Under the pieces are notes generated by a model. It made no database searches, was not told the DNA's origin, and was given only the letters and a program-made list of their open reading frames with translations. 42,298 bases of DNA from Acidobacteriota bacterium (GTDB taxonomy: Bacteria; Acidobacteriota; Thermoanaerobaculia; Multivoradales; JAHZIX01). Of this stretch, positions 9,463 to 41,849 are shown in pieces. The stretch is taken from NCBI GenBank assembly GCA_020439725.1, contig JAGQSE010000170.1:1-42298 (forward strand). The letters run 5' to 3'. A program made the position numbers and the translations under genes. Within the stretch, counting starts at the first letter, position 1. Each line of letters begins with the position of its first letter.

Positions 9463-9473
9463 GGGAAGTGAGT

Positions 9474-9509
9474 AAAAAAAGAGCCCGGCACCGCTCCTGT
9501 GGTACCGGG
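9474..9509 (-). terminator. Rho-independent terminator after the DUF736-like gene
   Basis: On the minus strand, CCCGGUACC-ACAGGAGC-GGUGCCGGG forms a 9-bp stem (one G-U pair) with an 8-nt loop. It is followed by CUC and U7 (plus-strand A7 at 9474-9480). The stem starts 9 nt after the stop codon at 9518-9520. Confidence 0.7.
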
Positions 9510-9517
9510 CAAGGGCT

Positions 9518-9721
9518 CTACCGTCGGGGAGCCTGTGTCCGCTTGGCGCCAGGCCGTTGGCGCGGCTCAGCCAGGATGAAGCGGCCATCCGGAGGTAGCA
9601 GGTCCAGAGCGACGGAAAGGCCTTGGCCGCTCTTGGTGTTCCAGGCGGCACCGATCTTGGTCCAATAGCCGTCCTTCACGTGGAAGGCATGGAAGACCGG
9701 AGAGTTCTCATGAGGAGTCAT
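9518..9721 (-). CDS. small DUF736-like protein
   Basis: 67 aa. The sequence KIGAAWNTKSGQGLSVALDLLPP resembles the conserved (F/I)GAAWKKTS...YLSVKLDDPSF core of DUF736 proteins found on ICEs and plasmids. It is shorter than typical family members. Confidence 0.5.
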   Translation of the reverse strand: MTPHENSPVFHAFHVKDGYWTKIGAAWNTKSGQGLSVALDLLPPDGRFILAEPRQRPGAKRTQAPRR

Positions 9722-10544: not shown

Positions 10545-10901
10545 AATAATGATGCTAGCGGAGCAGGAGTCCGCAGTAAAGGCGATTTTTTATTGCGCGA
10601 ATGGGCATGGTTGCCTTGTTGAGGGTTTCGAGTGCGTGCTTCGGAGTGTGGTAGTCTTAGAGAGTATGTGTGTTCATCCATGAGTCTTGGGGGTGGGAGC
10701 CTTCGATGATGTCTTGCAACCGCTCCAGGGGCCCGAGCCGCCATTTGGCTTGGTGGTTTTCGACCGCTGAGAACGGGGCGGTAGGTTCCATGCCGAGCTA
10801 GTCCAGGTACGGCCCAGGAACCCTAGGGGCTGGAGCGGAGTCCAACTCAACGATTGGGCACCGTGGTCCGTAGACCCAGAAAGAGCCGGGAGGTGCGATT
10901 G

Positions 10902-17407: not shown

Positions 17408-17504
17408 TGACAGGGTTGAGAGATAGGAGTGGGCGGAAGCGGGGCCTGGGACTCTTGACTCGGAGCCTACTGGAAGCGCTGGTGGTGTGGAACGGGAGAG
17501 AGAA

Positions 17505-20500
17505 ATGATGAGGCTCAGACGGAAGCAGACTCTCGCTGGGGGGCTCCTCGCCCTCTGCCTCGCATCAAGCGCAGCTGCCCAGCTCGACTCCTCCTGCCTC
17601 ATCAGTGCGCTCAATCGCACGGCTCCGGTCGAGGCGGATGGCACCTGGGTGCTCCCGAACGTCCCGGCGAATCTGGGGAAGGTGAGGCTACGGGCGACGT
17701 GTATTCGGGACGGAGTCGTCACCACCGGTCAGTCGGACTTCATCGAGGTGCCGGCGAACGGGGTCATCGAAGTAGCCGAGATCCGCTTCGACGTGACCGA
17801 GCCGGTGCCGGAGCGACTCGTGCTCAGTGCGCCGACTACTTCCTTGACCTCGGTCGGCCAGACCGTCCAGCTCACCGCGACAGCGGCCTACCCCGGCGGT
17901 AGTCAAGTGGACGTGACCGCGGCATCCGCCGGGACGACCTATCGGTCCAGCATGGCTACGGTGGCGAGCGTGGACGCCGACGGTCTCTTGACCGCGGCAG
18001 CCAGCGGCACGGTTTTGGTGAGTGCCGTCAATGAAGGGGCGTTGGGGCTCTTGCAGCTCTCGGTCGTGCTCTCGGGAGACAGCGACGGCGATGGTTTGCC
18101 GGACGACTTCGAGCTGGCGAACGGGCTCGATCCGAACAACCCGGACGATGCTCTTCTCGACCATGATCAGGATGGGCTCTCGACCTTAGAGGAGTTCCAG
18201 CAGGGGCTCGATCCGTTTGACAGCGACACCGACGACGATCAGTTGCTCGATGGCGCCGAGGTGGGGACCTGGGGAACCAACCCCCTCCTCTTCGACACCG
18301 ACGGGGACGGACTCTCGGATGGGCTTGAGGTAGCCACGGGGAGCGATCCGCTGGACCGGCTGAGCTTCAATCTCGCCGCGGCGCTCGAAGGGATCGAGGT
18401 GGCGCCCGAGAGCTTCACGATCATTTACAACACGGTCCTTGGGGAGGCGTCCCGCCAGCTCACGGTGACCGGGCAGCTCATCGATGGCAACCAGCTCGAC
18501 ATCACGTCGGACTTCTATGGAACGTCCTACACCTCCAACGATCTCTTTGTCGCCAACTTCGGAGCGGACCCGGGGCGTATCTTCGCCGGGGAGGACGGTG
18601 TCACGACGATCACCGCGGCGTGTAGCGGCTTCAGCGCCCAAGCTACCGTGACGGTAGAGAGCTTCGCGCCGATCGCGTTGTCGTTCTTGCCCTTGGGCGG
18701 AAGGCCCCGAGCGGTAGCGTTGGATGGCGCTCACGCCTATGTCGCGATGGGGCCGGTAGGCCTCAAGATCGTCGATGTCAGTGATCCGGAGCTCCCGTTC
18801 GAGGTGTCGAGGCTATATCTGTACTCCGAGCCGCCGTTCCGGGAGTATCGCGTCGTTTCCTCCGTGGCGGTACAGGATGGGCTGGCCTATGTGGGGGCGA
18901 ACGGTCTCGCGGTGATCGATGTCGCCGTGCCGACGGCTCCGACTCAGCTCTCGTATCTGTCCATCCCCACCATTTCTGTGGAAGCGATAGCCGTTCGGGG
19001 TGATCGGGTCCTCGCCGGTGGCTATGGCTCTCTCGGCGAACCAGGCGCGCTCGCCTTGATCGATGTCAGCGATGCGCTTTCGCCGGTGCTGCTGGGAGCG
19101 GTCGCGTTGCCCGGCAAGGTCGAGGATGTGGTCTTTTTCGGTTCGTACGCGGTGGTTACGACCGGCTTCACTGGCGTTCAGGTGGTCGATCTTCAGGACG
19201 AGACCTCGCTCGAGGTCGTCGGGTCGACTGATACCCGTTCCGGAGGACGCTCCAATGCCTCTGGGCTGGCCATGGCTGGTCAGCAGGTTCTGGTGGCCGA
19301 TGGTGGCCGCTATGGGGACCCGGGCACGCAGCTCGGCGGGCTTCGCGTCGTCGATCTGGCGGATCCGGCGAACCCGGCCTTGGTCGGGAGCACTAGCGAT
19401 CGCTTCGGTCTGACCGGTGTCGCCTGGGATGGCACGCTGGCGCTGACCGCGGACTACTTCTTCGCAAACGGGGTGCCCGTTTTCCGTCCGGCGGAGCCTT
19501 CGCCGCTATGGACCGGCTTGGTGGACTTCTCACAGCCGCCCATTGGAGGAAGCGGAAACGGAATCGACTTGGCAGTGAGTGGTGGGCTGGTCTACCTGGC
19601 AGGTGCGCGGGGAGCAACCGGTCCAGGCGGTCTGTACATCGGTCGCTACCTCATTCCCTTCGACGGCGAGGGGATTGCGCCCTCTGTAGCCTTTACGGCC
19701 CCAACCGAGGGGACGCTCGTGCCCGAGCGAGAGTGGGTGCAGGTGGCCGCAGAGGCGAGCGATGACATCTTCGTCCAGTCAGTGACATTCTCGGTCGATG
19801 GTCAAGCCGTCCGGGAGGACTTCGCGGCGCCGTATGGTGTGCGCATCCCCGTGCCCGCCGGTGTGTCCTCTCTGACCGTGACAGCGCAGGCCCGAGACGC
19901 CGGTGGCAACGTGTCTTCCGTGGCAGCTCTCGAGCTGGCCGTCGAGCCCAACAGCGCGCCGACCGCAGCCATTCTTGCGCCGCCCGAGGGGCTCGAGGTC
20001 CAGATCGGCGAACAGGTCGCTGCCGCGGTACATGCGACCGACGACGTGGGGGTCGACCGTGTGGAGTTCTTCGTCGATGGAGCGCTGGTGGCGACGGATG
20101 ATCGTGGTCCTTCGTACGGGGCGGTTCTGAACCTCGGCTCGACCGCGGGGACCCACCAGCTCACCGCGCTCGCCTATGACGACGTAGGGCCTTCAGAGAC
20201 CGCAGGTCCGGTATCGCTAGTCGTGGTGCCCGATGATCCACCGGAGGCCCGAGTGGTCGCGCCGGCAGATGGCACCGAAGTGATCGCCTACTCCTTGCTC
20301 GAGGTCGTCGCGGGCGCCAGCGACGCGGTGGGGATCGACCGCGTGAGCTTCTATCAGGATGGCGCGCTCGTAAGCACGGACCAGGCGGGGCCGGACTACC
20401 GGACAGCCTTGGCGGTGCCAGGACCGGGTGTCACTCTGAATCTGTGGGTGGTCGTCCGCGATACGGCGGGCCAGGAAACGATGTCCGAGGTCAACCAGGT

Positions 20501-21401
20501 GACCGTGGTCGCCGATCCGCTGACGTCGGCAACAGGGTTGGTTTTGGGTCCCACGGGCGAAGCCTTCGCCGGTGCGACGGTTTCTGCCGTCACGCTCGAA
20601 GGGACGCAGGTGACGGGCTTGACCGATGGTAGCGGCCTCTTCCTCTTGGAAGACGTTCCCGCCGCCCAAGGGGATCTCTCGATCTCGTCCATCGCGCTCG
20701 AGGCGGGCGAGGAGCTGCGCGCCAGCCTCCCCGACCCGATCGCGCCCTTCCCGGGCGATGTCGTCGATGTGGGCGTCCTCCTTCTGGACTACTCCGCGCT
20801 GGGGACGCTCGTGCGGGGTGTGGTCGAGGACGACCTGGGGAATCCGGTACCCGATGCTCAGGTAGGGTTACACGACCGGTTCGTTCGTCAGGAGACCACA
20901 ACTGACAGTGCGGGTGAGTTCGTCTTCACGCGCTTCCCGGTCTACCCGGGGAGCCAGTTCTTCCTGTCTGCCGAAGCGACGCTCAGCACCGTCGTCCATA
21001 CGGGAAAGCTGCCCAATGTTTTCCCCAACCCGATCGGGGATACCGATGTAGGAGCGATCACTCTGGCGCCAGAGGCCGGAGGGGATCCGCTGACGGCCGC
21101 GACCGGGATCGTTCTCGATCAGGCCGGTGAACCGGTGCCGGACTTCGAGGTCGTCGTTTCCTCGGATACGGCCTTTGTCGTGACCCTCACGGATGCGAGT
21201 GGTCAGTACACCGTACCGGCCCTGCCCGCTCTCGATGGTGGCCTCGTCGCTGCGGCCAGTGGCATCGCAGACGGCCGATCCTACCGGGAGACGACAAGCC
21301 CAGCGTCACCCGTGCCTGGCGGAACGACCGTGCTCGACACGTTGTTCCCCTTCGGTGAAGGCGGCGGCGGGGAGGGGGTCTCCGGAAGCCCGACCGACTG
21401 A
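17505..21401 (+). CDS. giant secreted protein (about 1298 aa): Big_2, thrombospondin type-3-like Ca-binding repeats, LVIVD repeats, Ig-like and CarboxypepD_reg-like domains
   Basis: GGGAGAG precedes ATG 17505/17508. The signal peptide is MMRLRRKQTLAGGLLALCLASSAAAQ. D-rich repeats read DSDGDGLPDDFE...DHDQDGL...DSDTDDD...DTDGDGLSDGLE. LVIVD-type strands include LKIVDVSDPELP, LAVIDVAVPTAP, LALIDVSDALSP, VQVVDLQDETS and LRVVDLADPANP. Three VxFxVDG-type Ig modules are followed by regulatory-like beta-sandwich segments. Confidence 0.85.
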   Translation: MMRLRRKQTLAGGLLALCLASSAAAQLDSSCLISALNRTAPVEADGTWVLPNVPANLGKVRLRATCIRDGVVTTGQSDFIEVPANGVIEVAEIRFDVTEPVPERLVLSAPTTSLTSVGQTVQLTATAAYPGGSQVDVTAASAGTTYRSSMATVASVDADGLLTAAASGTVLVSAVNEGALGLLQLSVVLSGDSDGDGLPDDFELANGLDPNNPDDALLDHDQDGLSTLEEFQQGLDPFDSDTDDDQLLDGAEVGTWGTNPLLFDTDGDGLSDGLEVATGSDPLDRLSFNLAAALEGIEVAPESFTIIYNTVLGEASRQLTVTGQLIDGNQLDITSDFYGTSYTSNDLFVANFGADPGRIFAGEDGVTTITAACSGFSAQATVTVESFAPIALSFLPLGGRPRAVALDGAHAYVAMGPVGLKIVDVSDPELPFEVSRLYLYSEPPFREYRVVSSVAVQDGLAYVGANGLAVIDVAVPTAPTQLSYLSIPTISVEAIAVRGDRVLAGGYGSLGEPGALALIDVSDALSPVLLGAVALPGKVEDVVFFGSYAVVTTGFTGVQVVDLQDETSLEVVGSTDTRSGGRSNASGLAMAGQQVLVADGGRYGDPGTQLGGLRVVDLADPANPALVGSTSDRFGLTGVAWDGTLALTADYFFANGVPVFRPAEPSPLWTGLVDFSQPPIGGSGNGIDLAVSGGLVYLAGARGATGPGGLYIGRYLIPFDGEGIAPSVAFTAPTEGTLVPEREWVQVAAEASDDIFVQSVTFSVDGQAVREDFAAPYGVRIPVPAGVSSLTVTAQARDAGGNVSSVAALELAVEPNSAPTAAILAPPEGLEVQIGEQVAAAVHATDDVGVDRVEFFVDGALVATDDRGPSYGAVLNLGSTAGTHQLTALAYDDVGPSETAGPVSLVVVPDDPPEARVVAPADGTEVIAYSLLEVVAGASDAVGIDRVSFYQDGALVSTDQAGPDYRTALAVPGPGVTLNLWVVVRDTAGQETMSEVNQVTVVADPLTSATGLVLGPTGEAFAGATVSAVTLEGTQVTGLTDGSGLFLLEDVPAAQGDLSISSIALEAGEELRASLPDPIAPFPGDVVDVGVLLLDYSALGTLVRGVVEDDLGNPVPDAQVGLHDRFVRQETTTDSAGEFVFTRFPVYPGSQFFLSAEATLSTVVHTGKLPNVFPNPIGDTDVGAITLAPEAGGDPLTAATGIVLDQAGEPVPDFEVVVSSDTAFVVTLTDASGQYTVPALPALDGGLVAAASGIADGRSYRETTSPASPVPGGTTVLDTLFPFGEGGGGEGVSGSPTD

Positions 21402-21421: not shown

Positions 21422-22279
21422 ATGGATGCTCGAGACGCTCTTCACCGTCTGCTCGAACGAGGTCCGCGGTCGCTTGCTGACGCGGAGCTCCTCGCCGTGA
21501 TTCTCGGGAACCGCTCGGAGATGCCGGAGGCTGTCGCGGAGAGTCTCCTCGCGGGCCCCGATGCCTGGTCGGAGCTGGTACTGGCGGGCGAGAACCTGCT
21601 GGAACGCGACGGTCTGAATGCGGCCGAGGCCGCGATGGTCATGGCGACTCTCGAGCTCGGACGCCGGCTCGCGGAACGGCGCATCCCCAAGCGGCGGCCG
21701 CTCTCGCAGCCCAAAGCCCTCGTCACCTATCTCGACCTCCGCTATGGCTATCGCGACCAGGAAGTCCTTGGCGCTCTCTACCTCGATGCCCGGCACCGCC
21801 TGCTCAGCGAAATGGAGATTTTCCGGGGGACGCTCAACCGCATGAGCGTCGAGCCCGGCCCCATTCTCCGGAAGGGGCTACTTCAGGGAGCTGCGAGCGT
21901 GGTCATCTTCCACACCCACCCGAGTGGCAACCCCACCGCGAGCGCCGCCGATGTCGCGTTCACCCGGCGGCTGGCGCAGTCCGCGGACATCGTGGGACTC
22001 CGGCTGCTCGATCATCTGATCCTGGGGCGTGGTGGCCGTTGGATGTCGCTCCTCAAGCGCTCGTGGGTCGACGGGTATCAGCGGAAGCGGCGGCCCCGCG
22101 TCGAGACGTCCCGCCGGGTCAAGCCGAAGTACCGTCACCCGGAGACGGGCGAGACCTGGGCGGGATGCGGAAGCATGGCGCGGTGGTTGCGGCTCGAGCT
22201 GGAGGCAGGCCGTTCGCTCGAGGAGTTCCTCGTGGGCGACGAGGGCAAGGAAGCTGTCGCGCGGGCGCTTCCGGGCTAG
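21422..22279 (+). CDS. radC: RadC-family JAB/MPN domain protein fused to a C-terminal H-NS-type DNA-binding domain
   Basis: The N-terminal LADAELLAVILG is the RadC HhH-type start. The JAMM motif is VIFHTHPSGNPTASAADVAFT (HTHPSG at 21911-21928). The C-terminal KPKYRHPETGETWAGCGSMARWLRLELEAGRSLEEFLV (22118-22234) matches the H-NS C-terminal pattern KYR.P.TG.TW.GRGR.P.W......G.SL..FLI. Confidence 0.85.
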   Translation: MDARDALHRLLERGPRSLADAELLAVILGNRSEMPEAVAESLLAGPDAWSELVLAGENLLERDGLNAAEAAMVMATLELGRRLAERRIPKRRPLSQPKALVTYLDLRYGYRDQEVLGALYLDARHRLLSEMEIFRGTLNRMSVEPGPILRKGLLQGAASVVIFHTHPSGNPTASAADVAFTRRLAQSADIVGLRLLDHLILGRGGRWMSLLKRSWVDGYQRKRRPRVETSRRVKPKYRHPETGETWAGCGSMARWLRLELEAGRSLEEFLVGDEGKEAVARALPG

Positions 22280-22741: not shown

Positions 22742-23200
22742 GTGTCCCTGTACCTCCTCGACGGCAACGTCCTGACGGCGCCGGAAGACCGCGCCAAGCC
22801 TCATTTCGAGACAGTTCGGCGGCGTCTCGGCGGTCTCGCGGCGACGGACCGGGTCGGTATCTCGGTCGTGTCGGCCTACGAATACGAACACGGAATCGCC
22901 AAGGCTCAGGGAGGTTTGCAGGAAGCCCTGCGGCGTACCTGGGCGACCTTCCTGGACGTCTTCGAGATCCTGCCGCTGTCGCTCAGCGGTGCGCGGCGCT
23001 ATGGCGAGCTCCGGTCCCGCTACGAGCAGAGCGTCGGTAGCACTTCGAAAGCTGCCAGCCGCCACACGTCGGACTTCCTCCTCGCCGCCACCGCTCTCGA
23101 CCTCGAGGCGATTCTGGTGAGCGGTGACCAGCTCTTCTCGAAGCTGCGCGAGCTAGAGCCGCAGCTGCGCGTCGAGGATTGGCGGAGCTCCATCGAGTAG
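22742..23200 (+). CDS. vapC: PIN-domain (VapC-like) toxin
   Basis: The gene has a GTG start. LYLLDGNVL carries the first conserved Asp. YEYEHG, SDFLLAATAL and ILVSGDQLF supply the other acidic positions typical of PIN nucleases. Confidence 0.75.
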   Translation: MSLYLLDGNVLTAPEDRAKPHFETVRRRLGGLAATDRVGISVVSAYEYEHGIAKAQGGLQEALRRTWATFLDVFEILPLSLSGARRYGELRSRYEQSVGSTSKAASRHTSDFLLAATALDLEAILVSGDQLFSKLRELEPQLRVEDWRSSIE

Positions 23201-23435: not shown

Positions 23436-24695
23436 ATGCACTCGTGGGAACGCCGCCGCTTTCTTCATCCGCGGCACCGTGGACTCGTGCTGGGGCGCCG
23501 GCAACGCCTGAGCCGGCAGGACTCGTTCAAGAATCTGGTGCTGGTGGCACCGACCGGTTCTGGGAAGACCACCCGCTACGTCATCCCGAATGTCCTCGAG
23601 GTCGAGGGCTCCGTAGTCGTCACCGACCCTTCGGGCGAGATCTACCAGCACACCGCAGGACCGCTTCGCGACCGGGGTTTCGGCATTCAGGTGTTGCAGC
23701 CGGCGCGGCTGGCGGAAAGCGCTCGTTTCAACCCGCTGGCCTGCTGGCGCTCCGCGCAGGAGCTTCGTCAGCTCGCGACGCAGCTGGGCATGGCGACGCA
23801 GGGGCGCTCAGCGGATCCCTTCTGGACAACTTCGGCGATTAACGTGCTCTTCGTTCTGCTCACCGCGCTCTACCATCTCGAAGATCCCCGCCGTCACACC
23901 ATGGGCCATCTTCGCGACCTCCTTAATCGGTGCGGTGCTGCACACTCGAACGACTTCGAGCGCTTCATGGCTCGCTACCTGGCGGATGAGCCGCGAGTCT
24001 GGAGCGAGTACCAGGCCTTCCGGGGCCAAGACCCCAAGGTCGCCGCATCGATCGTGTCCAGCGCCCGCGCCGCGCTGGAGCTGTGGAGCGATCCGGACAT
24101 CTGCGAGCTCACCGGCCAGCACACGATCGACCTCGCAGCGCTTCGACAGGCGCGCACGGCCATCTACCTGATCGTGCCCGAGCACCAGATCCGCTACTTC
24201 GGCCCCCTGCTCAACCTCTTCTACTCCGCATGCTTCAACCACTGCCTGGTGAGCGGAAGAAGCGCCGAGGAGGAGCCGGTCTACTTCCTCCTCGACGAGT
24301 TCGGAAACCTCGGCTACGTCCACAACTTCGCCAGTGTCATCACCACGCTGCGCAAGCGGCGCTGCTCGATCAGCCTGATTCTCCAGGACCTCTCGCAGCT
24401 CCGCGCCACCTATGGCCCCGACGAGGCGCGCACGATCTTCTCCGGCGGGTGCGCGAACAAGCTCTTCTATGGCGGCCTCGACCTCGAGACCGCCGAGTAC
24501 GTCGAACGCGCCCTCGGCAAGCGCACCGAGTACGACACGGTCTTCGGGGGGATCAGTGACCGGGCGCGGACGGTGGCTGTTCCGCTGATGACGGCGGATC
24601 AGGTGCGGAGGATGCGGTGGGGGGAGGCGGTGTTGTTGTCGGGAAAGGAGCGGCCGGTATGGCTGCGGTTCGATACCAAATGGACATGGGCTTGA
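23436..24695 (+). CDS. TraG/VirD4-type type IV coupling protein ATPase lacking the N-terminal transmembrane region
   Basis: 419 aa. Walker A is LVLVAPTGSGKT followed by VVTDPSGEIY. Walker B is YFLLDEFGNLG. The sequence continues TTLRKRRCSISLILQDLSQLRATYG and ends PLMTADQVRRM...AVLLSGKERPVW. The in-frame upstream sequence back to a TAG at 23304 has no ATG, GTG or TTG and no TM-like stretch. Confidence 0.85.
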   Translation: MHSWERRRFLHPRHRGLVLGRRQRLSRQDSFKNLVLVAPTGSGKTTRYVIPNVLEVEGSVVVTDPSGEIYQHTAGPLRDRGFGIQVLQPARLAESARFNPLACWRSAQELRQLATQLGMATQGRSADPFWTTSAINVLFVLLTALYHLEDPRRHTMGHLRDLLNRCGAAHSNDFERFMARYLADEPRVWSEYQAFRGQDPKVAASIVSSARAALELWSDPDICELTGQHTIDLAALRQARTAIYLIVPEHQIRYFGPLLNLFYSACFNHCLVSGRSAEEEPVYFLLDEFGNLGYVHNFASVITTLRKRRCSISLILQDLSQLRATYGPDEARTIFSGGCANKLFYGGLDLETAEYVERALGKRTEYDTVFGGISDRARTVAVPLMTADQVRRMRWGEAVLLSGKERPVWLRFDTKWTWA

Positions 24696-33405: not shown

Positions 33406-36258
33406 TCAAAGACTTTCGGATGGCCTCTTGGTAAGCCTCTGAAGCCGGCTGCCTGCTGTCTTGGTTTCCCATGCGTCGGCTCCTTTCTCACTCTTAATTG
33501 CGAGATAGCTCTCCTCGAGAATTGGTCTGGCTTCTTTAGTGAGGCCTCGGCCGGCCATGCAGGCGCCGAGAATGCTTCGAGCGTCAGCCAGCTTGAGAGG
33601 GTCTGGAGACGACTGGCTCGAAAGAGCGTCTAGGACGTCTGCGATGAGCGCCTCTGCCTCCTCGTATTGCTGACTCTCTTCAAGAATCGAGGCGAGGCGG
33701 TGTTGATCGCGCACAATGGCTGAGTGCCTAGGCGAGAAAGTCCCGGAGTCGCGTGAAAGGGCCTCACGGGCTAGTTCCTCGGCCTCGGCAAGTTGCCCCT
33801 GACTCTGTCGGAGAAAAGCTAGGTTTTGAAGGTCGGAGGCGATGATAGGCGCGTCATCGCCATACGCGGCGCGCCTCTGTTGGGCTACCTCTTCGAACAG
33901 GCGGATTCCGGCTTCGCCCTCGCCGCTGAGCCACAGGAAGTAGGCATAGCTGGCACGAACCGATAAGACTCGCGGGTGATTTTCTGGCAAGTACTGGCTG
34001 TAGATCTCGAAGGCTTCTTCGAAGGCATCCTTTGCCTCTGGGTACCGCTCCTGTTTCTGGAGAATCAGGGCAAGGTTGCCGAGTGTGTTGGCGATATTGG
34101 GGTGGCTCTCCTTGCGGAGACTTTTCTCCATAGCGATTGAGCGTTTGTAGAGTTGCTCTGCGTGTCCGTAGTCGAGCTGGTGTGCCTTGAAGATTCCATA
34201 ATTGTTGAGAAGGCTGGCGATAGAGGGATGACCGTCAGGATAGAGCTTTTGTCCTAAGGCGAGTGCTTTCACGAAGGCGTCTTCAGATTTCCCGGGATCT
34301 TCTACTCTGCGATAGAGAACGGCGAGCTCGATGAGCGTATTGAGGGTATTGGGGTGGTCCGGCCCGAGGGTGTTCTGGTTCCACTCAAGAGCTTCTTCGA
34401 GCGTTTGAAGGGCGTTCGCGTAGTCTCCTTGGAGGCGCCGAGCTGTTCCAAGGCTGAAGAGGCTATCGCCAACCAGAGAGGCAGACTCTGGTAGGTGTTG
34501 TTGGCGAATTTGGAGAGACTGTTGGTGGGCCTCTGCCGATGCTGAATAGTCACCTTGGTTACGGTAGACAAGGCCCAGGTGATCCAGCGTTGAGGCTAGT
34601 TCTAGGCTTTGTGGGCCTTCGAGAGTGCTCCAGAGGCGTGCGGCTTGGAGTAGGTGGCGGAGGGCCAGCTCGTACTGCGCAGTATGGTTCTCTGCTAAGC
34701 CGAGGAGGTTTAGGGCTCTGGCCGTTTCCGGACTCTCTGGGCCACTCGCTTGTTTTTGGAGGTCCAAGAGCGTCTGACTCAGGGCAAGGCTCTCTTGATA
34801 GAGCCCAAGAGCGCCATAGGTTTGCTGGAGAGGGACCAGGAGCTGGGCTCTTGTCTCTGGGTCCTGATCGGAACTTGCTAACACGCGATCCTTAGCCGCG
34901 TCGAGGAGGGCGCGGGCTGTTATAACGGAGCCTTGATTCTCGTCTGGGTTGGCAGCCTCAAATATCCCAACCATGAACTCGCTGACCATTTCAGCGCGGT
35001 CTCGCTCTCGGGCCGTCTCATCACGCTGCTCTTTCATGATCCAGGCGGCGCTCAGGCTCAAGAGGATGGCCAGGAGGATGGCTGCGGACTTTCCAGGGTG
35101 GCGCCTGAATAATCTGCCTATACGGTAGCCAAAGGTGTCGTCGCGGGCTTGGACCGGCAGACCTTTTAGATACCGGTCTAGATCTTCGGAAAGCTGTAGA
35201 GGAGAACCGTACCGCCGCTCTGGCTCCTTCCGGATTGCCATCATCACGATGGTGTCGAGATCGCCTCGGAGGCGCTTCCGGAAGGCGAGCGCGGTGGGAT
35301 CCTGGCCAGAGTCAGGCGCCGGAGCGCTGGCTTCGCTAGGAAGGAGTGGAGTCTGTTGGCAGACGATTTGGTGGATCGCCGCTGCATCCTGATTCTCGAA
35401 GGAGTAGGGGGGAACTCCGGCCAAGAGCTCGTAGAGAATCACACCGAGCGAGTAGGTGTCGCTGGCAGTGGTCAGGGAGGTACCTGAGATCTGTTCTGGG
35501 CTGGCGTACTTGGGGGTAAAGAGCCTGAGGCTCCCGCCCGTGAGGGCTTCGGTGGTGCTACCAGGCTCTTCAAGGAGCTTTGCCACCCCGAAGTCTAGGA
35601 GCTTTGGCTCGCCGCCCTTGGTGACCAAGATATTGCTGGGTTTGAGATCCCGATGGACCACCAGGTTCTGGTGGGCGTATTGAACCGCTTCACAGACCTT
35701 CGAGAAGAGCGAGAGGCGCTGCTCCAGCGAAAGGTCGTGCTCCCGGCAATAGTCCGTAATGGGCTGGCCCTCGACATACTCCATCAAGTAGTAGAGCCGA
35801 CCGTCCTCTGTGGTGCCGCCTTCGTAGAGCCTGGCGATGTTGGGGTGGTTGAGCTTGGCGAGAATCGCCATCTCTCGGCGAAAGCGTCGATCCGAGTCCT
35901 CATCCCGGGCTTCGGGCCTCAGTACCTTGAGCGCTACTTCGCGGTGGAACTCATCGTCGGTCCTCGCGGCGAGGTAGACGACCCCCATCCCTCCAGAACC
36001 GAGAATCCTCAACACCTGGTACGAGCCGACCTGGCTCCCGTCAGAGAGAGGGGCGGGCTCCTCATCAAGCAGCCGGACAGGAGGGGCGTCGAGGAAGGAA
36101 ATTGCTTCAGCATCGGAGTCGAGGAAGCTTTGGAGCTCTTCGAGAAGCTCTGGATCCCCATTGCAGGCTTCAGCGAGAAATGCTGGACGCTCTTCGACCG
36201 GAAGCTCCCGGAGCTTGGGGAGGATCTTCTTGGCTTGTTCCCAGTGTTTAGGCTTCAT
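33406..36258 (-). CDS. Ser/Thr protein kinase with TM segment and C-terminal TPR array (950 aa)
   Basis: Kinase motifs are LGSGGMGVVYLA...VALKVL, HRDLKPSNILV, DFGVAKL and YASPEQ. The TM is SAAILLAILLSLSAAWIM. Many TPR-like repeats follow (LNLLGLAENH..., LGLVYRNQGDY..., LAVLYRRVEDP..., LALILQKQERY...). Confidence 0.9.
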   Translation of the reverse strand: MKPKHWEQAKKILPKLRELPVEERPAFLAEACNGDPELLEELQSFLDSDAEAISFLDAPPVRLLDEEPAPLSDGSQVGSYQVLRILGSGGMGVVYLAARTDDEFHREVALKVLRPEARDEDSDRRFRREMAILAKLNHPNIARLYEGGTTEDGRLYYLMEYVEGQPITDYCREHDLSLEQRLSLFSKVCEAVQYAHQNLVVHRDLKPSNILVTKGGEPKLLDFGVAKLLEEPGSTTEALTGGSLRLFTPKYASPEQISGTSLTTASDTYSLGVILYELLAGVPPYSFENQDAAAIHQIVCQQTPLLPSEASAPAPDSGQDPTALAFRKRLRGDLDTIVMMAIRKEPERRYGSPLQLSEDLDRYLKGLPVQARDDTFGYRIGRLFRRHPGKSAAILLAILLSLSAAWIMKEQRDETARERDRAEMVSEFMVGIFEAANPDENQGSVITARALLDAAKDRVLASSDQDPETRAQLLVPLQQTYGALGLYQESLALSQTLLDLQKQASGPESPETARALNLLGLAENHTAQYELALRHLLQAARLWSTLEGPQSLELASTLDHLGLVYRNQGDYSASAEAHQQSLQIRQQHLPESASLVGDSLFSLGTARRLQGDYANALQTLEEALEWNQNTLGPDHPNTLNTLIELAVLYRRVEDPGKSEDAFVKALALGQKLYPDGHPSIASLLNNYGIFKAHQLDYGHAEQLYKRSIAMEKSLRKESHPNIANTLGNLALILQKQERYPEAKDAFEEAFEIYSQYLPENHPRVLSVRASYAYFLWLSGEGEAGIRLFEEVAQQRRAAYGDDAPIIASDLQNLAFLRQSQGQLAEAEELAREALSRDSGTFSPRHSAIVRDQHRLASILEESQQYEEAEALIADVLDALSSQSSPDPLKLADARSILGACMAGRGLTKEARPILEESYLAIKSEKGADAWETKTAGSRLQRLTKRPSESL

Positions 36259-36337
36259 CGTGAGGGCTCCATAGGAAGGTCAGTGCTTCCTTTGTGCCTA
36301 CGAGGCGCAAAGGAGCAGATTCTTGGCTCAAGGAAAC

Positions 36338-36467
36338 ACGAGAGACGAGGGAATCGGTTCGAGGTGGTACTATGCGGGCTGCCGCACTAAGAGCTAGTCG
36401 GTAAGGGGGCCGCTCCGGCGTCACGGTGGCGTGGGAAGTGCCCCGAGCTCTTGGTGAGGTGTCCAGA
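36338..36467 (-). pseudogene. decayed 3' remnant of an ECF sigma-factor gene (paralog of 39143-39733)
   Basis: 36259-36333 aligns to 39057-39130 (the kinase 5' flank) at roughly three quarters identity by eye. AGAGACG (36341-36347) corresponds to 39146-39152 at the sigma stop. 36420-36444 (gtcacggtggcgtgggaagtgcccc) corresponds to 39213-39237 (gtcacggtggtacgggagatgccca), the region-4 HTH coding sequence, with 19 of the best 24 positions identical. There is no intact ORF. Confidence 0.4.
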
Positions 36468-39056
36468 TCAGTGGAGCTCTTCCAGGGCAGTTCGAAGAGT
36501 TCTTGACCGTTCGCTCTGGGGTCCGAAGAGGCGGTCTGAGAGCTCAGTAGCCTGGGTGAGTAGCTGGCGAGACTCTTGGCTCTCCCCCCGGCGTTTCAGG
36601 AAGTAACCAAGCTTCTCAATCCCATTGAGGAGATCTATATGGTCCTGGCCAGCGCTTGAGGCCCGTCTCCTTTCCAGTGACTCTCGATGAATAGCTTCAG
36701 CTTCCTTGAAGAATCCCTGTGCTTCGCGAATCTCTCCAATAAGGCTCAGGCTGTGAGCGATATGGGGATGGTCAGCCGGGAGGCTTGCTCTTCTTCCAGC
36801 GAGCCCGGCCTCGCAAGCTTCAAGTGCCTGGTTGTACTTGCCAGCGGTAAAGAGTGTTCTGGCGAGGTTGTGTTGAGCGATCGCTGTTTCAGGATGATCA
36901 GGGCCGTACACGGCGGTGAGCATTTGGACGGCCTCGCGACACCTTTCTTCTGCCTCTTCTTGGCGGAGGAGCTTCTCCAGAGTTCCGCAGATATTGAGGA
37001 GCGTCCGTGCTACCGAGGGATGGGGAAGATCAAAGGCCTGGAGTTCTATGTCGAGGCCACGCTCTTGGAACTCGAGGGCTTCTTCGTAGCGTTCCTGGCT
37101 GGAGAGGTTCCAGCCGAGATTGTGGAGGGAGCTTGCGAGGTTCCGATCCGTTGGGCTTAGCTCTTTCTGGCGTATGGCAAGTAACTCTCGGAAGAGCGCT
37201 TCTGCTTCCTCGTATTTGCTTTGCATCGTGAGCGTCGCGGCAAGGTTGTTTTTTGCCTCGAGTACTTCAGGATCGTGCGCACCAAGAAGGTGAGTCCGCA
37301 GAGCTAGTGCCTCACGGAACAGCTCCTCGGCCTCCTCGTGACGGCCTTGAGCAAGCAGAAGGCCCGCGAAGTTGTTCTTGAGGGAGGCATTTCGTTGATC
37401 AAATTTTGAAGGTAACGCCTTGTCGAAGACTGTTGACGACTGTCGGTAAAGTTCTTCGGACTCGTCGTACCTTCCCATGTAGTAGTAGGTAAGTGCCGTG
37501 TTACTCAGCTCTTCACCGTATTCTGCTGTCTCAGTCTCTCCGGCGGCTCGCAGTGCCTCCAGAGATGCGAGGTGGAGCGGGAGAGCTTGTTCCGCAAGCT
37601 CGAGGTCCGAGTACACACTGCCTATGCTCATTAAAAGGTCGGTCCGTAGCTGCGGATCCATTGTGCTAGTTGTTAGCAACACTTCGCTACCATGTTCAAG
37701 GAGTTCGAGTGCACTGATGTTCGAGGCTTTGATGTCCTGGGGGTCGGCTTCACGGAAGAGATTGACCAAGAAGGTTGTTGCTTCCCTAGCACGATCCCTC
37801 TCGCGTATCACCTGATCTCTTTGTTGTGTCATGACGAAGGAAGACGCAACGCTCGCGAGGATGACCAGGGCCGTTACAGCAATCTTCCAAGGATGTCGCC
37901 CGACGAGTTTCCCGGCCTTATATCCCCAGGTGTCAGCTCGGGCTTGGACTGGCCTCCCTTCAAGGTATCTGTCGAGATCATCGGAGAGTTGCTGACCAGA
38001 TCCGTATCGCCGCTCGGGCTCTTTTCGCAGGGCCACTAGAATGATCCGGTCGAGATCGCCCTTGAGGTGGCGCTGCCATCCTTTTTGGGCTCCTACTGCC
38101 TCACGGGGAACTCGGGTGCCTGCTGCTGCCACGCTTGGAGGTGCTGGTGGCTTCTGGAGAACCTCCTGGAGGAACTCCTCCAGTGACTGGCCTGCAGCGC
38201 GGAAAGGCTTTGTTCCGGAAAGTAGCTGGTATAGCAGCACGCCTAAAGAATAGACATCACTCTGGGTACCGATGTGCTGGCCAGACAGTTGTTCGGGGCT
38301 TGCATACTCAGGAGTTAAGAGCTTGTGCCCGGTTCCGGTTGGCACCCTCGGGGCACTTCCAGTTTCCTCGAGAGGACGGGCAATGCCGAAGTCGAGGAGT
38401 TTTGGCTCTCCGTCTTCCGTCACGAGCACATTCGAGGGCTTAATGTCTCGATGAACGACTAGCTGAGTATGGGCATACTGTACTGCTGCACAGACCTTCT
38501 GGAAGAGTCTTAGGCGCTGCTCAAGCGATAGCCTGTGTTCTCGGCAGTAGCTGTCGATGGCCTGACCTTCGACGTGCTCCATGAGGTAATAGAGTCGGCC
38601 ATCGTCCGTGCGGCCGCCCTCAAAGAGCCGGGCGATGTTAGGGTGATGGAGTTTTGCAAGGATTCCCATTTCCCTAAGGAAGCGCTTCTCGGCCTCGGGG
38701 CTCGTCTGGCCGACCTGAAGGACCTTGAGCGCCACTTCACGCTCGAACTCTTCGCCGATCCGTCTAGCCAAGTAGACGACCCCCATCCCCCCGGTGCCGA
38801 GAGTCTTTATTAGCCTGTAGGAACCTACTTGGCTACCCTCGGAAAGAGGGGCGAGCTCCTCCTCAAGCAGCCGGATCGGAGGGGCGTCGAGGAAGGAGAT
38901 TGCTTCAGCATCGGCGTCGAGGAAGCTATGGAGCTCTTCGAAGAGCTCTGGGTCCCCTTTTGAAACGTCAGCGAGAAAGGCCAGACGCTCTTCGACCGGC
39001 AGTTGCCGCAGCTTGGGGAGGATCTTCTTTGCTTGTTCCCAGTGTTCAAGCTTCAT
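36468..39056 (-). CDS. Ser/Thr protein kinase with TM segment and C-terminal TPR array (862 aa), paralog of 33406-36258
   Basis: Kinase motifs are LGTGGMGVVYLA...VALKVL, HRDIKPSNVLV, DFGIARP and YASPEQ. The TM is IAVTALVILASVASSFVM, followed by TPR-like repeats. By manual alignment, 76 of the first 97 residues are identical to the other kinase. Confidence 0.9.
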   Translation of the reverse strand: MKLEHWEQAKKILPKLRQLPVEERLAFLADVSKGDPELFEELHSFLDADAEAISFLDAPPIRLLEEELAPLSEGSQVGSYRLIKTLGTGGMGVVYLARRIGEEFEREVALKVLQVGQTSPEAEKRFLREMGILAKLHHPNIARLFEGGRTDDGRLYYLMEHVEGQAIDSYCREHRLSLEQRLRLFQKVCAAVQYAHTQLVVHRDIKPSNVLVTEDGEPKLLDFGIARPLEETGSAPRVPTGTGHKLLTPEYASPEQLSGQHIGTQSDVYSLGVLLYQLLSGTKPFRAAGQSLEEFLQEVLQKPPAPPSVAAAGTRVPREAVGAQKGWQRHLKGDLDRIILVALRKEPERRYGSGQQLSDDLDRYLEGRPVQARADTWGYKAGKLVGRHPWKIAVTALVILASVASSFVMTQQRDQVIRERDRAREATTFLVNLFREADPQDIKASNISALELLEHGSEVLLTTSTMDPQLRTDLLMSIGSVYSDLELAEQALPLHLASLEALRAAGETETAEYGEELSNTALTYYYMGRYDESEELYRQSSTVFDKALPSKFDQRNASLKNNFAGLLLAQGRHEEAEELFREALALRTHLLGAHDPEVLEAKNNLAATLTMQSKYEEAEALFRELLAIRQKELSPTDRNLASSLHNLGWNLSSQERYEEALEFQERGLDIELQAFDLPHPSVARTLLNICGTLEKLLRQEEAEERCREAVQMLTAVYGPDHPETAIAQHNLARTLFTAGKYNQALEACEAGLAGRRASLPADHPHIAHSLSLIGEIREAQGFFKEAEAIHRESLERRRASSAGQDHIDLLNGIEKLGYFLKRRGESQESRQLLTQATELSDRLFGPQSERSRTLRTALEELH

Positions 39057-39142
39057 GTTCAGGGCTCCGCTGGAAGGTCATGCTGCTTTGTACCTACGAG
39101 GCGCAAAGGGGCAGGCTCCTGGCGCAAGCCAACGAGGAGATC

Positions 39143-39733
39143 TCAAGAGACGGCTGGAACTGGGGCGCCGAGCTCCCGCGCCAGAAACTCCTTTGCCATG
39201 GCCCACTCTCGTGTCACGGTGGTACGGGAGATGCCCAGGGCTGTGGCGGTCTCTTCGCCGGTCAGGCCAGCGAAGAAGCGAAGCTCTACGATCTGGGCGG
39301 CTAGGGGATCGAGGGCTTCGAGTTGCTCGAGGGCTTCATGAAGGCTGAGGAGGATTGCTGGTGGAACGGAGGCGGCCGCTTCGCGATCCATCCCGCCGGT
39401 CAGCGAGACGATCTCGACGTGTCGGCCTCTTTTGGCAGCTTTTCGAACTTTTGCCGCGTCGATCAGCACCCGGCGCATGAGCTTGCCGGCGAATGCGAAG
39501 AACTGCCTGCGGTTCTCCCACTGCACCTTCCGCAAGCTCATGAGGCGGAGGCAGACTTCGCTGATCAGCGCCGTGGGTTGCAGCGTGTGATCGGCGTCTT
39601 CGCGGTTGAAGTAGAAGTAGGCGCAGCGCCTGAGCTCCTCCAGGACCAGGGGCATGAGCTGGTCGAGAGCTTCGGGATCTCCCTCATTCCAGAGCTGCAG
39701 CTTCGCGGTGATCTCACCCGGTTGGATCTTCAT
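39143..39733 (-). CDS. ECF-type sigma-70 factor (Sigma70_ECF / TIGR02999-like)
   Basis: 196 aa. The N-terminus is ITAKLQLWNEGDPEALDQLMPLV. Region 2 is HTLQPTALISEVCLRL. Region 4 is IVELRFFAGLTGEETATALGISRTTVTREWAMAKEFL. These are characteristic of this ECF subgroup. Confidence 0.9.
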   Translation of the reverse strand: MKIQPGEITAKLQLWNEGDPEALDQLMPLVLEELRRCAYFYFNREDADHTLQPTALISEVCLRLMSLRKVQWENRRQFFAFAGKLMRRVLIDAAKVRKAAKRGRHVEIVSLTGGMDREAAASVPPAILLSLHEALEQLEALDPLAAQIVELRFFAGLTGEETATALGISRTTVTREWAMAKEFLARELGAPVPAVS

Positions 39734-39995
39734 ATAGACCTCTGGTCGAACAGCAGCGGGCGCTAGGCCCGTGTTCTGGCAGACGCGTGGGCACGCGGTG
39801 TCCAGTAACAGCGCAAGGCAGCAATTGAGGGGCTGCGCAATACTAGCAGGTTCAAGTTCGATGGGCTGGAGCCGGGTTCCGCCCTAGAGCTGCTCCCCAG
39901 ACCTGGACCCGCTCTATCTTCAGTAGGAGCAGGCCTTGAGGCCGCAACAGGTGAAGTGGCGGCAGCGTCGATGCGAGCCTTCCATTTCAGGTCCG

Positions 39996-40589
39996 TTAGC
40001 CGTCATCGTCCACTGTCTGCTCTGCTTCTCGTAGTTGCTTCCGCACCCACAACCGCACCCCCGCCACCTCCAACTCATACACATCAGCATCGATCCCTTC
40101 TCCTTCGAGGTTCCGGTATTCATAGACCTGCCACGGGGGCTCGTCCCGCTCGGCGTGGTGTGGGAAGCAGGAGTACGGGTTGTCGGGGAGCAGGCTGTCG
40201 AGGGAGAGGTCGTGCTCCTCGAGCAGGTCTTCGACCTCCTGGAAGGCTGAGCGGGCGCGGTCTTCGCCTAGATAGGTGACGACGAGGGCGCTCAGAGACT
40301 CGATGCGGGTACGGAGATCGTCGAGAGTGACACCGGCGAGGTCGATGCCGTAGTCGTCACCATAGTTCTCGAGCAGAGTGAGTTGGTCGTCGAGATCGAG
40401 GTCCAGAACCAGACATTCGTCGACGGACCAGTCTTCGAGCGCTTCGCGGCACTCTTCGAGCGTGGCGCGGGGGTCGTAGCGGAGCCGGTACTCGATGAGC
40501 TCGAGCTGACGGGCGCAGGCGGTGTCGACGGCGTCGTTGGCGGCTGTACTGAGATGGGGATGGTGGGATTCAAAGGCGGAGGGAGACAT
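39996..40589 (-). CDS. strongly acidic hypothetical protein (197 aa)
   Basis: The ORF follows the relaxase gene on the same strand (38-nt gap). It is D/E-rich (for example LVLDLDLDDQLTLLENYGDDYGIDL). No SD and no recognised motif. Confidence 0.55.
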   Translation of the reverse strand: MSPSAFESHHPHLSTAANDAVDTACARQLELIEYRLRYDPRATLEECREALEDWSVDECLVLDLDLDDQLTLLENYGDDYGIDLAGVTLDDLRTRIESLSALVVTYLGEDRARSAFQEVEDLLEEHDLSLDSLLPDNPYSCFPHHAERDEPPWQVYEYRNLEGEGIDADVYELEVAGVRLWVRKQLREAEQTVDDDG

Positions 40590-40627
40590 GAGGGAGGGAT
40601 GAAAGGGCAGAAAGGGGGGGCGAGAGG

Positions 40628-41479
40628 TTAGCGCCCGCGCTCGGGAGCGCGCTCGTCCTGGCCCGGTGGACCTCGGGATCGGTCTGGAGACGGCGTGACT
40701 TGCTGTGGGTTGAGCTGCCAGGAGCGGCGGGCGTCGTCGAAGGCCTTCGCTACCTCCAGCGTCTTCAGCCGGAAGCGTCTTCCAGATTGCGCGTCCGCTA
40801 CGCCGACGGTTTGGCCGCGACGGTACAGGCGGAGGCCGTGGCGCAAGAGTCGTTGGTAGAGCTCAGGACCAGACCACGAGGCAGCGAGCTCCTGTAAGAC
40901 GACACCTCGAACCACATCCTTTCGGCAGGGTGTGGACTCGCCCCGCCTCCTCCGTTCCTGCTCTGCCCGGGTCTCGCGCTCCTTCTTCCGCGCGCGTGGT
41001 TCCTGGGCTAGCGAGTGACCCAGCTCTGGGTAGCGCTCGCGTTGGTAGCGCTCCAGTGCTTGCTGCACCCTTCGGAAGCTCTGTTTTGAGAGCCGGAGTC
41101 GCTTCGCGCTGCCGACGTTGTTGGCGGAAATCACCAGGTGGACGTGTGGGTTCGCCGTGTCGAGATGCGCCCGACCGTAGGCGAGGGCGTAGGGAGCGCG
41201 CAGCTCGAGGTACCGGCGGGTCAGGTCGAGCAGTGCGCCAGGATTGAGCTGCTCCCGGTCTTGCGGCGCGAAGCTGAGGACCTCGTGGTAAAGGACGTTC
41301 CCGTTCTTCCGCGGGGGCAACAGGTGGGCGTTGTGCAGGAACTCGCGGCGAATCTGCTCCGAAGAGCTGTGCCCGCCGAAGTTGTGCAGCAACGGTGCAG
41401 TCGTCTCCTGAGGCCGGTCGATGTAGCTCAGCAGCTGGCTGAAGCTGATGCTCTTACGCGCCATCGACTTGATGATCAT
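40628..41479 (-). CDS. MobA/VirD2-family relaxase (relaxase/mobilisation nuclease domain), short form (283 aa)
   Basis: The N-terminal MIIKSMARKSISFSQLLSYI is followed by VLYHEVLSF and the His triad HLDTANPHVHLVIS (the HxDxxxPHxH motif of this family). Confidence 0.85.
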   Translation of the reverse strand: MIIKSMARKSISFSQLLSYIDRPQETTAPLLHNFGGHSSSEQIRREFLHNAHLLPPRKNGNVLYHEVLSFAPQDREQLNPGALLDLTRRYLELRAPYALAYGRAHLDTANPHVHLVISANNVGSAKRLRLSKQSFRRVQQALERYQRERYPELGHSLAQEPRARKKERETRAEQERRRRGESTPCRKDVVRGVVLQELAASWSGPELYQRLLRHGLRLYRRGQTVGVADAQSGRRFRLKTLEVAKAFDDARRSWQLNPQQVTPSPDRSRGPPGQDERAPERGR

Positions 41480-41849
41480 GGGAGGCGTTGTCGCTACTGG
41501 GGAGATCCTCGAGGGTTTTCTGAAGCACGCTGACTACTCGCTCGAGCGTGAGCACCAGCCTGCCGGCGTTGCGGAGGTCCTGGTGCGTGACCCGCTGGAA
41601 CGAGTTCGCGTGGGCCGCCATCTGGTTGAGGTTGGTACCGACCCGGCGGATTTCCTGGATCAGCTGACCGAGATGGTTCTGGAGTGACTCGGGAAGCATC
41701 GTTCGCCGCTGGCAGTAGGCCATGGCGGCATCGCGAAGAAACGGAGCCAGCTTGGCGCCGAAGCTGCGGGCGGTTGTGAGGAGTAGCTCGTGCTGGTGGG
41801 GATAGAGGTTGCAGGTCACGCGGTGCGTGTAGGTTCCGTGCAGAGGCAT
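41454..41849 (-). CDS. mobC: MobC-family relaxosome accessory protein
   Basis: 131 aa. HRVTCNLYPHQHELLLTTARSFGAKLAPFLRDAAMAY is RHH-like. IRRVGTNLNQMAAHAN is the MobC signature (GNNLNQ). The gene overlaps the relaxase start by 26 nt. Confidence 0.8.
   Translation of the reverse strand: MPLHGTYTHRVTCNLYPHQHELLLTTARSFGAKLAPFLRDAAMAYCQRRTMLPESLQNHLGQLIQEIRRVGTNLNQMAAHANSFQRVTHQDLRNAGRLVLTLERVVSVLQKTLEDLPSSDNASHDHQVDGA

Follow-up and report, generated by a model that had tools for sequence, protein, structure and literature searches.

How is an extracytoplasmic function (ECF) sigma factor controlled when no anti-sigma factor gene adjoins its own, and which genes would it serve? This question is raised by a locus on contig JAGQSE010000170.1 (assembly GCA_020439725.1; 42,298 nucleotides (nt), hereafter the window), where a sigma factor gene, two Ser/Thr kinase genes and the gene for a giant surface or secreted protein lie together on a mobilisable element. 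Our analysis indicates that the locus probably encodes a phospho-switch of the ECF43 type, in which two kinases resembling PknS would activate a single sigma factor and a conserved promoter-like motif would drive expression of the kinases and of the giant protein.

Five genes of this locus follow one another head to tail on the minus strand. The sigma factor gene (39143..39733) is separated by 86 nt from the gene for kinase 2 (36468..39056, 862 residues), which is followed after 209 nt by the gene for kinase 1 (33406..36258, 950 residues); neither gap holds an open reading frame (ORF). Next come a gene for a HEAT-repeat lipoprotein (32307..33404; HEAT_2, E 4e-12, with an LPGC lipobox) and the gene for a 2512-residue protein (24772..32310) with Big_5, He_PIG, DUF11, GEVED and Flg_new_2 domains. 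The HEAT gene begins either at the ATG at 33404, 1 nt from the end of the kinase 1 gene, or at an alternative ATG at 33392, which has a better ribosome-binding site (GAGG) and would widen the gap to 13 nt. Its stop codon overlaps the GTG start of the giant gene by 4 nt (GTGA). Scans for sigma-70 promoters and terminators gave scores at or below chance, with no terminator-like site in the gaps. These gene boundaries, their order, the gaps and the overlap had all been described in the initial annotation of the window, and every detail of it that could be checked was correct.

The sigma factor is of the kinase-linked ECF43 type

The 196-residue sigma factor consists of the sigma2 and sigma4 regions only and passes the cutoffs of both families searched, with 157 bits against PF07638 (cutoff 21.1) and 170.8 bits against TIGR02999 (cutoff 126.15), region 4 being detected as well. 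ECF43 sigma factors are defined by a neighbouring Hanks-type kinase, the lack of an anti-sigma factor, and a region 2.2 in which uncharged residues, among them a conserved Thr (consensus QTTA), stand in for the acidic DAED motif in this patch; phosphorylation of its Thr enables the sigma factor to bind RNA polymerase (PMC8999054, PMC13147305, PMC7826278). In the window sigma factor, region 2.2 reads DHTLQPTAL (Q52-P53-T54-A55-L-I-S-E) in place of DAED. An alignment of 27 sigma relatives showed that H49, L51, Q52, T54 and A55 are invariant and that the SLTG motif of the linker (S110, T112) is nearly so. Codon 54 (ACG, 39572..39574, minus strand) thus encodes an invariant Thr that we predict to be the phospho-acceptor; going by the published description of the motif, it would be the counterpart of the second T of QTTA, which is T51 in EcfK. 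Judged by the two profiles, the alignment and this literature, the sigma factor is of the kinase-linked ECF43/TIGR02999 type, in agreement with the initial annotation.

The absence of an adjoining anti-sigma factor gene, also claimed earlier, was borne out: the upstream neighbour, a gene for a 197-residue protein, has no significant Pfam domain and is part of a mobile-element backbone. We used a background set drawn by sigma-alignment scan from metagenomic relatives with sigma identity of at most 52%, among the matches listed. In this set, 15 of the 20 long loci carry a kinase gene directly 3' of the sigma gene. Homologues of the window sigma factor are abundant: more than 7300 proteins match at E<=1e-10, the closest shares 74% identity, and the names of their sources indicate Acidobacteriota. 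An exact look-up of its sequence found nothing on record, and a scan of species-representative genomes returned no sigma relative above 47% identity, the best ones being from Thermoanaerobaculia, order Candidatus Multivoradales. The window sequence itself was found, without variants or joints, in low-depth DNA contigs of four activated-sludge metagenomes; none of the RNA sequencing runs searched carries it.

Sequences resembling an extended -10 element, and not the conserved motif described below, are present 5' of the sigma genes of this clade (TGTATAAT, TGTATACT, GGTATACT and TGCGGTATCCT; TGCTAGTAT in the window). They are located at about 39775-39790 in the window, at about 9880, 6690 and 60 in the related loci L001, L005 and L004, and upstream of sigma in L108 and L109. 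Their presence suggests that the sigma gene may be transcribed by the housekeeping machinery, and by resemblance only they would suit constitutive synthesis of an inert sigma factor.

Two anciently diverged kinases resemble PknS

Both kinases have the same predicted architecture. In kinase 2, a leader (residues 1-75) precedes a Hanks-type kinase domain (80-353), a single hydrophobic segment (about 390-411) and a C-terminal TPR array; in kinase 1, the leader (3-56) and a linker (58-70) are followed by the kinase domain (80-315), the hydrophobic segment (about 389-410) and its own array. The two kinase domains match Pkinase at E 2e-49 and 2e-52. The arrays are matched by TPR_12 and TPR_10, and the catalytic motifs (GxGGMGVV P-loop, VALK, HRDxKPSN, DFG and SPE) are intact in both proteins. 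Because the kinase domain would be cytoplasmic and each protein has a single transmembrane segment, the TPR arrays are expected to lie outside the membrane.

Among solved structures, the best match of kinase 1 is the cytoplasmic part of Xanthomonas citri PknS (residues 1-364; 9eed_A, E 1e-59), followed by mycobacterial PknB (2.5e-49). The alignment with PknS starts at residue 5 of kinase 1 and residue 8 of PknS and reaches 364; since it starts this early, the stretch preceding the kinase domain is covered by the match as well. In PknS, an 83-residue N-terminal extension and the kinase domain are described as preceding a transmembrane helix and periplasmic TPRs (PMC13147305); both window kinases share this layout and are full-length PknS homologues.

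The initial annotation had taken the kinases for a tandem duplication with near-identical leaders and divergent sensors, the latter suggesting two inputs to one sigma factor. Its count of 76 identical residues among the first 97 was exact, and the sensor arrays do diverge, with 24% identity between the two and 19-38% to the kinases of eight other loci. Overall identity is 44%. A recent local duplication is not supported: the kinase domains are 61% identical to each other, no closer than to those of the eight loci (54-71%). The nearest TPR arrays also differ, being that of L011 for kinase 1 (38%) and those of L109 (31%) and of L001 and L005 (30-31%) for kinase 2. Only the leader (residues 1-75) sets the pair apart, at 80% identity within the window versus 32-49% to the kinases of the other loci and 43-49% to orthologues.

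This local similarity extends into the DNA upstream. A homogenised tract that begins about 70 nt before the ATG and ends about 235 nt after it (36024..36328 in kinase 1, with its partner at about 38822-39126 in kinase 2, both on the minus strand) has 21-29 of 30 nt identical per window of comparison, mostly 25-29, and beyond it agreement falls to 14-24 of 30. At synonymous third positions of codons for identical residues, agreement is 39 of 47 within codons 1-60, drops to about half for codons 61-210 and is mostly lower thereafter. The simplest reading is that the kinases would be two old paralogues whose 5' ends, together with the upstream motif described below, were homogenised by gene conversion.

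On a rival reading, the sole cognate activator would be kinase 2, whose gene directly follows the sigma gene; kinase 1 would have come with a second sigma gene, since lost, and would now act on other substrates or only modulate kinase 2 by heterodimerising. The kinase domains are indeed as distant from each other as those of different loci, the arrays have separate affinities, and single-kinase loci are the rule, tandem kinases following such a sigma gene in one of the 20 long background loci, among the matches listed, with further cases on shorter contigs. Moreover, a 43-nt stretch of the spacer between the kinase genes (within 36350-36450, minus strand) is colinear with the 3' end of the sigma gene, which encodes region 4.2, and matches it at 31 of 43 nt, a score reached by 9 of 2000 shuffles. 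The stretch may be the relic of a sigma gene that formerly belonged to kinase 1. A profile search for a sigma relic in the 209-nt spacer was negative, however, and a local alignment over the whole window was not significant. Leaders and upstream motifs that are near-identical within the locus fit two kinases serving the resident sigma factor, and the catalytic motifs of kinase 1 are intact. We therefore regard a role for kinase 2 alone as unlikely, and favour the reading in which both kinases would act on the sigma factor.

The N-terminal leader is a near-universal feature of these kinases

The leader is encoded at 36034-36258 (kinase 1) and 38832-39056 (kinase 2), minus strand, and belongs to no Pfam family. 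A word-index search with the 75 residues alone gave no matches; an exhaustive single-sequence search of 1.84 billion representative proteins found 1477 at E<=0.001. Among the best 150 of these 1477 matches, the leader is nearly always N-terminal. A profile detects the leader, 60-75 residues in length, in 74 of the 75 kinases that adjoin ECF43-type sigma genes in the loci collected here. It also occurs in P0243, P0246 and P0252, and some proteins carry several tandem copies, with up to ten before one kinase domain in P0243.

An AlphaFold2 model of kinase 1 residues 1-400 (mean predicted local distance difference test score 87.8) places helices at residues 3-18, 21-32 and 36-56, with a disordered linker to the kinase domain. 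This three-helix extension and disordered linker agree with what has been reported for PknS (PMC13147305). Searching the PDB for folds like that of the leader model returned nothing below E=3 and thus showed no link to anti-sigma domains.

Across 32 sigma-kinase pairs, divergence of the leader correlates with that of the sigma factor (r = 0.68; partial r = 0.52 given the kinase domain), both values being inflated by shared ancestry. We propose that the leader may be a sigma-docking module. These data are also evidence that the N-terminal extension of PknS, unexplained so far, is one instance of a near-universal module of such kinases that tracks its sigma factor.

In one predicted entry of the representative protein library, P0324 (374 residues), the same ORF combines a Sigma70_ECF fragment with a leader and the first part of a kinase domain, which could reflect either a natural sigma-kinase fusion or an artefact of gene calling or a frameshift.

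A homologous giant protein accompanies the module in three gene orders

We compared the surroundings of the module in its closest relatives. In the four closest loci with enough flanking sequence, a homologous giant protein is encoded beside the module, and three gene orders are found: sigma, kinase 2, kinase 1, HEAT and giant in the window; giant, sigma and kinase in L001 and L005-8; and sigma, a 274-residue gene, giant and kinase in L004. In the closest loci on long contigs, the giant homologues (2068-2555 residues; E 1e-144 to 0) are on the strand of the sigma gene and adjoin it, at 3195-9617 in L001, 1908-9575 in L004 and 452-6658 in L005. The HEAT gene is not conserved alongside the module in related loci, and the product of the 274-residue gene of L004 has no similarity to the HEAT protein.

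Homology between the giant proteins covers their middle and C-terminal parts, which share the same set of Big_5, He_PIG, DUF11, GEVED and Flg_new_2 domains. Their N-terminal heads differ between loci, being an M23 peptidase, an S8 peptidase or SLH; the 520-residue head of the window protein has no Pfam or PDB match, although it may be of a zinc phospholipase C / S1-P1-like kind. From these domain arrangements, the family looks like one in which heads are swapped on a common stalk.

Two further large genes of the window, both on the plus strand, encode surface-type proteins: one of 1447 residues (10854-15197) with Glucodextran_B, PKD and DUF6973 domains, and one of 1304 residues (17487-21401) with Big_7, LVIVD, TSP3 and CarboxypepD_reg domains. 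Neither has the motif described below upstream.

A promoter-like motif precedes kinase or giant genes

The initial annotation had suggested looking for a shared motif upstream of positions 39733, 36258, 33404/32310, 10902 and 17505. Such a motif is present before 36258, the start of kinase 1, and before none of the others; an additional copy, at a place that had not been listed, precedes kinase 2. The copy before kinase 1 (TTGAGCCAA-N11-TTTGCGCCTCGTAGG, 36297..36331, minus strand) ends 38 nt before the ATG and, at 38.0 bits in a position weight matrix (PWM) scan, is the best of the window. The copy before kinase 2 (TTGCGCCAG-N11-TTTGCGCCTCGTAGG, 39093..39127, minus strand, 35.8 bits) begins 15 nt beyond the stop of the sigma gene and leaves 36 nt to the ATG of the kinase. 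These were the only two matches in the window, with a maximum of 18.4 bits in shuffled sequence; the scan found no copy before the HEAT gene, the giant gene or the plus-strand large genes at 10854 and 17487.

Across loci, the consensus is TTGAGCCA-N12-TTCTCGCCTTCGTAG, 35-36 nt in length. A strict pattern had 11 matches in 927 kb searched on both strands, every one lying between genes on the coding strand and followed by a kinase gene or a giant or cargo gene. The motif precedes the kinase gene in the window, L009, L011 and L108-111, and the giant gene in L001 and L005-8; in L004 it precedes the 274-residue gene that stands ahead of the giant and kinase genes, and in L108 it is also found before a 707-residue gene of unknown function. 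Weaker copies were detected by PWM scan in the gaps between sigma and kinase genes of L011, L108, L109, L110 and L111, and in every locus a copy on the same strand is located upstream of the kinase.

Internal spacing of the motif is fixed, the start codon follows at anything between 26 and 170 nt, and RNAalifold predicted no pairs and no consensus RNA fold. For these reasons a promoter fits better than a translational or RNA element. The distance from GAGCC to CGCC, 17 nt, is an ECF-like geometry. We found no published promoter motif for comparison in the ECF43 literature examined.

The initial annotation had cast the module as the apparent dedicated regulator of the giant protein. This idea is supported by the linkage, which is kept through rearrangement of the locus, and by the shared motif, and the module probably controls the giant surface protein.

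Several observations weigh against the reading of the locus as a phospho-switch acting through this motif. Assignment of -35 and -10 elements is uncertain: the best conserved block, CGTAG, and TGAGCC stand 22-23 nt apart. Another regulator could bind at the motif, and in L108 the motif precedes unrelated genes. An autoregulated ECF promoter would usually lie 5' of the sigma gene, where no copy is present. No giant gene adjoins the module where sigma identity is 59-60% (L009 and L011). As for the leader, the partial Mantel correlation is confounded by shared phylogeny, and similarity at synonymous sites indicates that the near-identity of the two leaders is at least partly due to gene conversion, with no selection needed.

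Taken together with the position of the motif at module boundaries (between sigma and kinase, between kinase and cargo, and before the giant gene) in loci of shuffled gene order, an unconventional geometry and the absence upstream of sigma would also suit an operator of another regulator, a promoter read by some other sigma factor, or a site at which mobile-element cassettes recombine or join. We consider these readings improbable. The motif always stands immediately 5' of genes and on their coding strand, its fixed internal spacing and variable start-codon distance speak for a promoter, and no RNA structure is predicted. Furthermore, it was found only in loci in which sigma identity is at least about 56%, save for one weaker match on the opposite strand in L083 (about 48%), as expected of a sigma-specific promoter. 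A promoter recognised by the window sigma factor is thus the reading we retain.

A proposed phospho-switch with feedback on its own kinases

We infer the following sequence of events from the protein motifs, gene order and conserved DNA. The sigma factor would be made in an inert form, its core-binding patch in region 2.2 being QPTA and not the acidic DAED. Two PknS-like receptor kinases, each crossing the membrane once, would hold their kinase domain inside the cell and their large TPR array outside, and the three-helix leader of each would serve as the docking module for sigma. A signal at the TPR array would lead to autophosphorylation of the kinase and transfer of phosphate to Thr54 of the sigma factor, with the conserved linker residues S110 and T112 possibly phosphorylated too. 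The added negative charge would allow the sigma factor to bind the RNA polymerase core, and the holoenzyme would initiate at TTGAGCCA-N12-TTCTCGCCTTCGTAG. One copy in the window stands before kinase 2 and the other before kinase 1, and the latter would drive a unit of about 11.6 kb spanning kinase 1, HEAT and giant genes; the 1-nt gap and 4-nt overlap that join these three genes, and the lack of a terminator-like site in the gaps, support their co-transcription. The kinases would thereby come under positive feedback and the giant surface protein would be produced in a switch-like manner, with the whole module travelling as cargo of a mobilisable element.

The principle of this switch is already known, because both kinases are homologues of PknS, which was shown to activate the ECF43 sigma factor EcfK. 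In Xanthomonas citri, EcfK and its cognate Hanks-type receptor kinase PknS control a type VI secretion cluster (PMC13147305, PDB 9eed), and linker residues are phosphorylated as well (PMC13147305). In Vibrio parahaemolyticus, EcfP and PknT form an ECF43 pair that responds to polymyxin, and activation of the sigma factor by the kinase was shown (Iyer et al. 2020, as summarised in PMC8999054). Activation of ECF43 sigma factors by a cognate kinase is thus established for both pairs, and a third, from Hyphomonas neptunium, has also been tested experimentally.

The window resembles the EcfK/PknS system in several respects: its kinases combine an N-terminal extension of about 80 residues, a kinase domain, one transmembrane segment and extracytoplasmic TPRs; its sigma factor has a Thr in place of the acidic region 2.2 motif and Ser/Thr residues in the sigma2-sigma4 linker; and the module sits inside the cluster that it controls, or, for the window, is proposed to control. 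It differs in having two kinase genes instead of one, in the size of its TPR arrays (about 450-540 residues versus three repeats in PknS), in its likely target, a single giant surface protein and not a secretion machine, and in its setting on a mobilisable element in a host that is probably an acidobacterium (Acidobacteriota). With EcfP/PknT, as far as the summarised account goes, it would by analogy share a sigma factor without DAED that is intrinsically inactive, is activated through phosphorylation of the region 2.2 Thr and has no anti-sigma factor; compared by the published motif, the window sigma factor has QPTA where EcfP has STTA. The classical RpoE-RseA and SigW-RsiW pairs have in common with the window a two-domain sigma factor (sigma2 and sigma4), a co-encoded membrane-spanning sensor and a bipartite promoter-like motif near the locus. 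Unlike them, the window has no anti-sigma domain, positive control by kinases is proposed in place of sequestration, and the motif follows the sigma gene instead of preceding it.

Activation of sigma factors by direct phosphorylation has been studied in a handful of systems, two of them in detail, despite the thousands of homologues of the window sigma factor. The known principle is unchanged by our analysis; what is new is the promoter-like motif, the conserved giant-protein linkage, the ancient paralogy of the kinases with homogenised 5' ends, the mobile backbone and the near-universality of the leader. Among the leads that follow are a candidate target promoter for one clade and a clear candidate for the output, the giant surface protein, whose gene stays with the module in all three gene orders. 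A locus in which two kinases would feed one sigma factor is a natural case for questions of signal integration, and its mobile setting shows that a circuit of this kind and its output gene can pass jointly from one host to another. A bolder version of the model describes a self-contained mobile sensory circuit in which two anciently diverged kinases address one phospho-activated sigma factor through an undescribed three-helix docking leader that gene conversion keeps matched, with a clade-specific promoter after the sigma gene that feeds back on the kinases and drives a giant protein with interchangeable enzymatic heads; we hold this whole to be possible but doubtful.

The module is carried by a mobilisable element

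The initial annotation had placed the module on a mobile island, and this context is real. Directly upstream of the sigma gene lies a mobile-element backbone (39996..41849, minus strand) composed of genes for MobC/NikA (41454-41849; PF05713/PF21983), a MobA/VirD2 relaxase (40628-41479; PF03432) and the acidic 197-residue protein (39996-40589), and a type IV coupling protein (PF02534) is also encoded in the window. The order MobC, relaxase, protein of about 200 residues, sigma and kinase recurs in L109, L110 and L111, from other metagenomes, with proteins 53-64% identical. Because this backbone recurs and the window has these mobility genes, we regard the module as cargo of a family of mobilisable elements.

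The location of the module in the window, L109, L110 and L111 directly after the genes for MobC, the relaxase and the 197-residue protein, together with its place between mobilisation genes and the coupling protein gene, could mean that it mainly controls the element itself (its transfer, maintenance or entry exclusion) with the giant protein as incidental cargo, but this is very unlikely, since no motif copy precedes any transfer gene of the window and the giant gene stays linked where the fetched flanks show no transfer genes (L001). Control of the giant protein is thus the function we favour.

Further features of the element were noted. No integrase was found among the ORFs scanned in the window, the contig has no terminal overlap that would indicate circularity, and comparison of the relaxase with plasmids gave only two weak matches (35-36% identity). 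Positions 1-23 of the window (TTCAATTCCGCCCCTGGGCACCA) resemble the T-arm and acceptor (3') end of a tRNA gene, which would fit an element integrated at such a gene; the window has no second copy, and ARAGORN found no whole tRNA in it.

The guanine plus cytosine (G+C) content of positions 28000-39000, which span the sigma-kinase-HEAT genes and the 5' part of the giant gene, is 53-60%, versus 63-67% at 18-27 kb and in parts of the rest. The module may have an origin different from that of the backbone. Two coupling-protein-like genes (TrwB-like, 876 residues, and T4SS-DNA_transf, 419 residues) and two relaxase-type genes (a Replic_Relax gene, and the MobA/VirD2 gene with its MobC) are distributed over 178-2808, 7171-8115, 23436-24695 and 40628-41849; two mobile elements, or a single composite, may be present on this contig. 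The window also encodes a fusion of a RadC-like JAB domain with an H-NS C-terminal DNA-binding domain, a PIN-domain protein and an N6/N4 DNA methylase (21422-22279 and 22742-23200, plus strand; 8815-9651, minus strand), which are typical accessory genes of conjugative elements.

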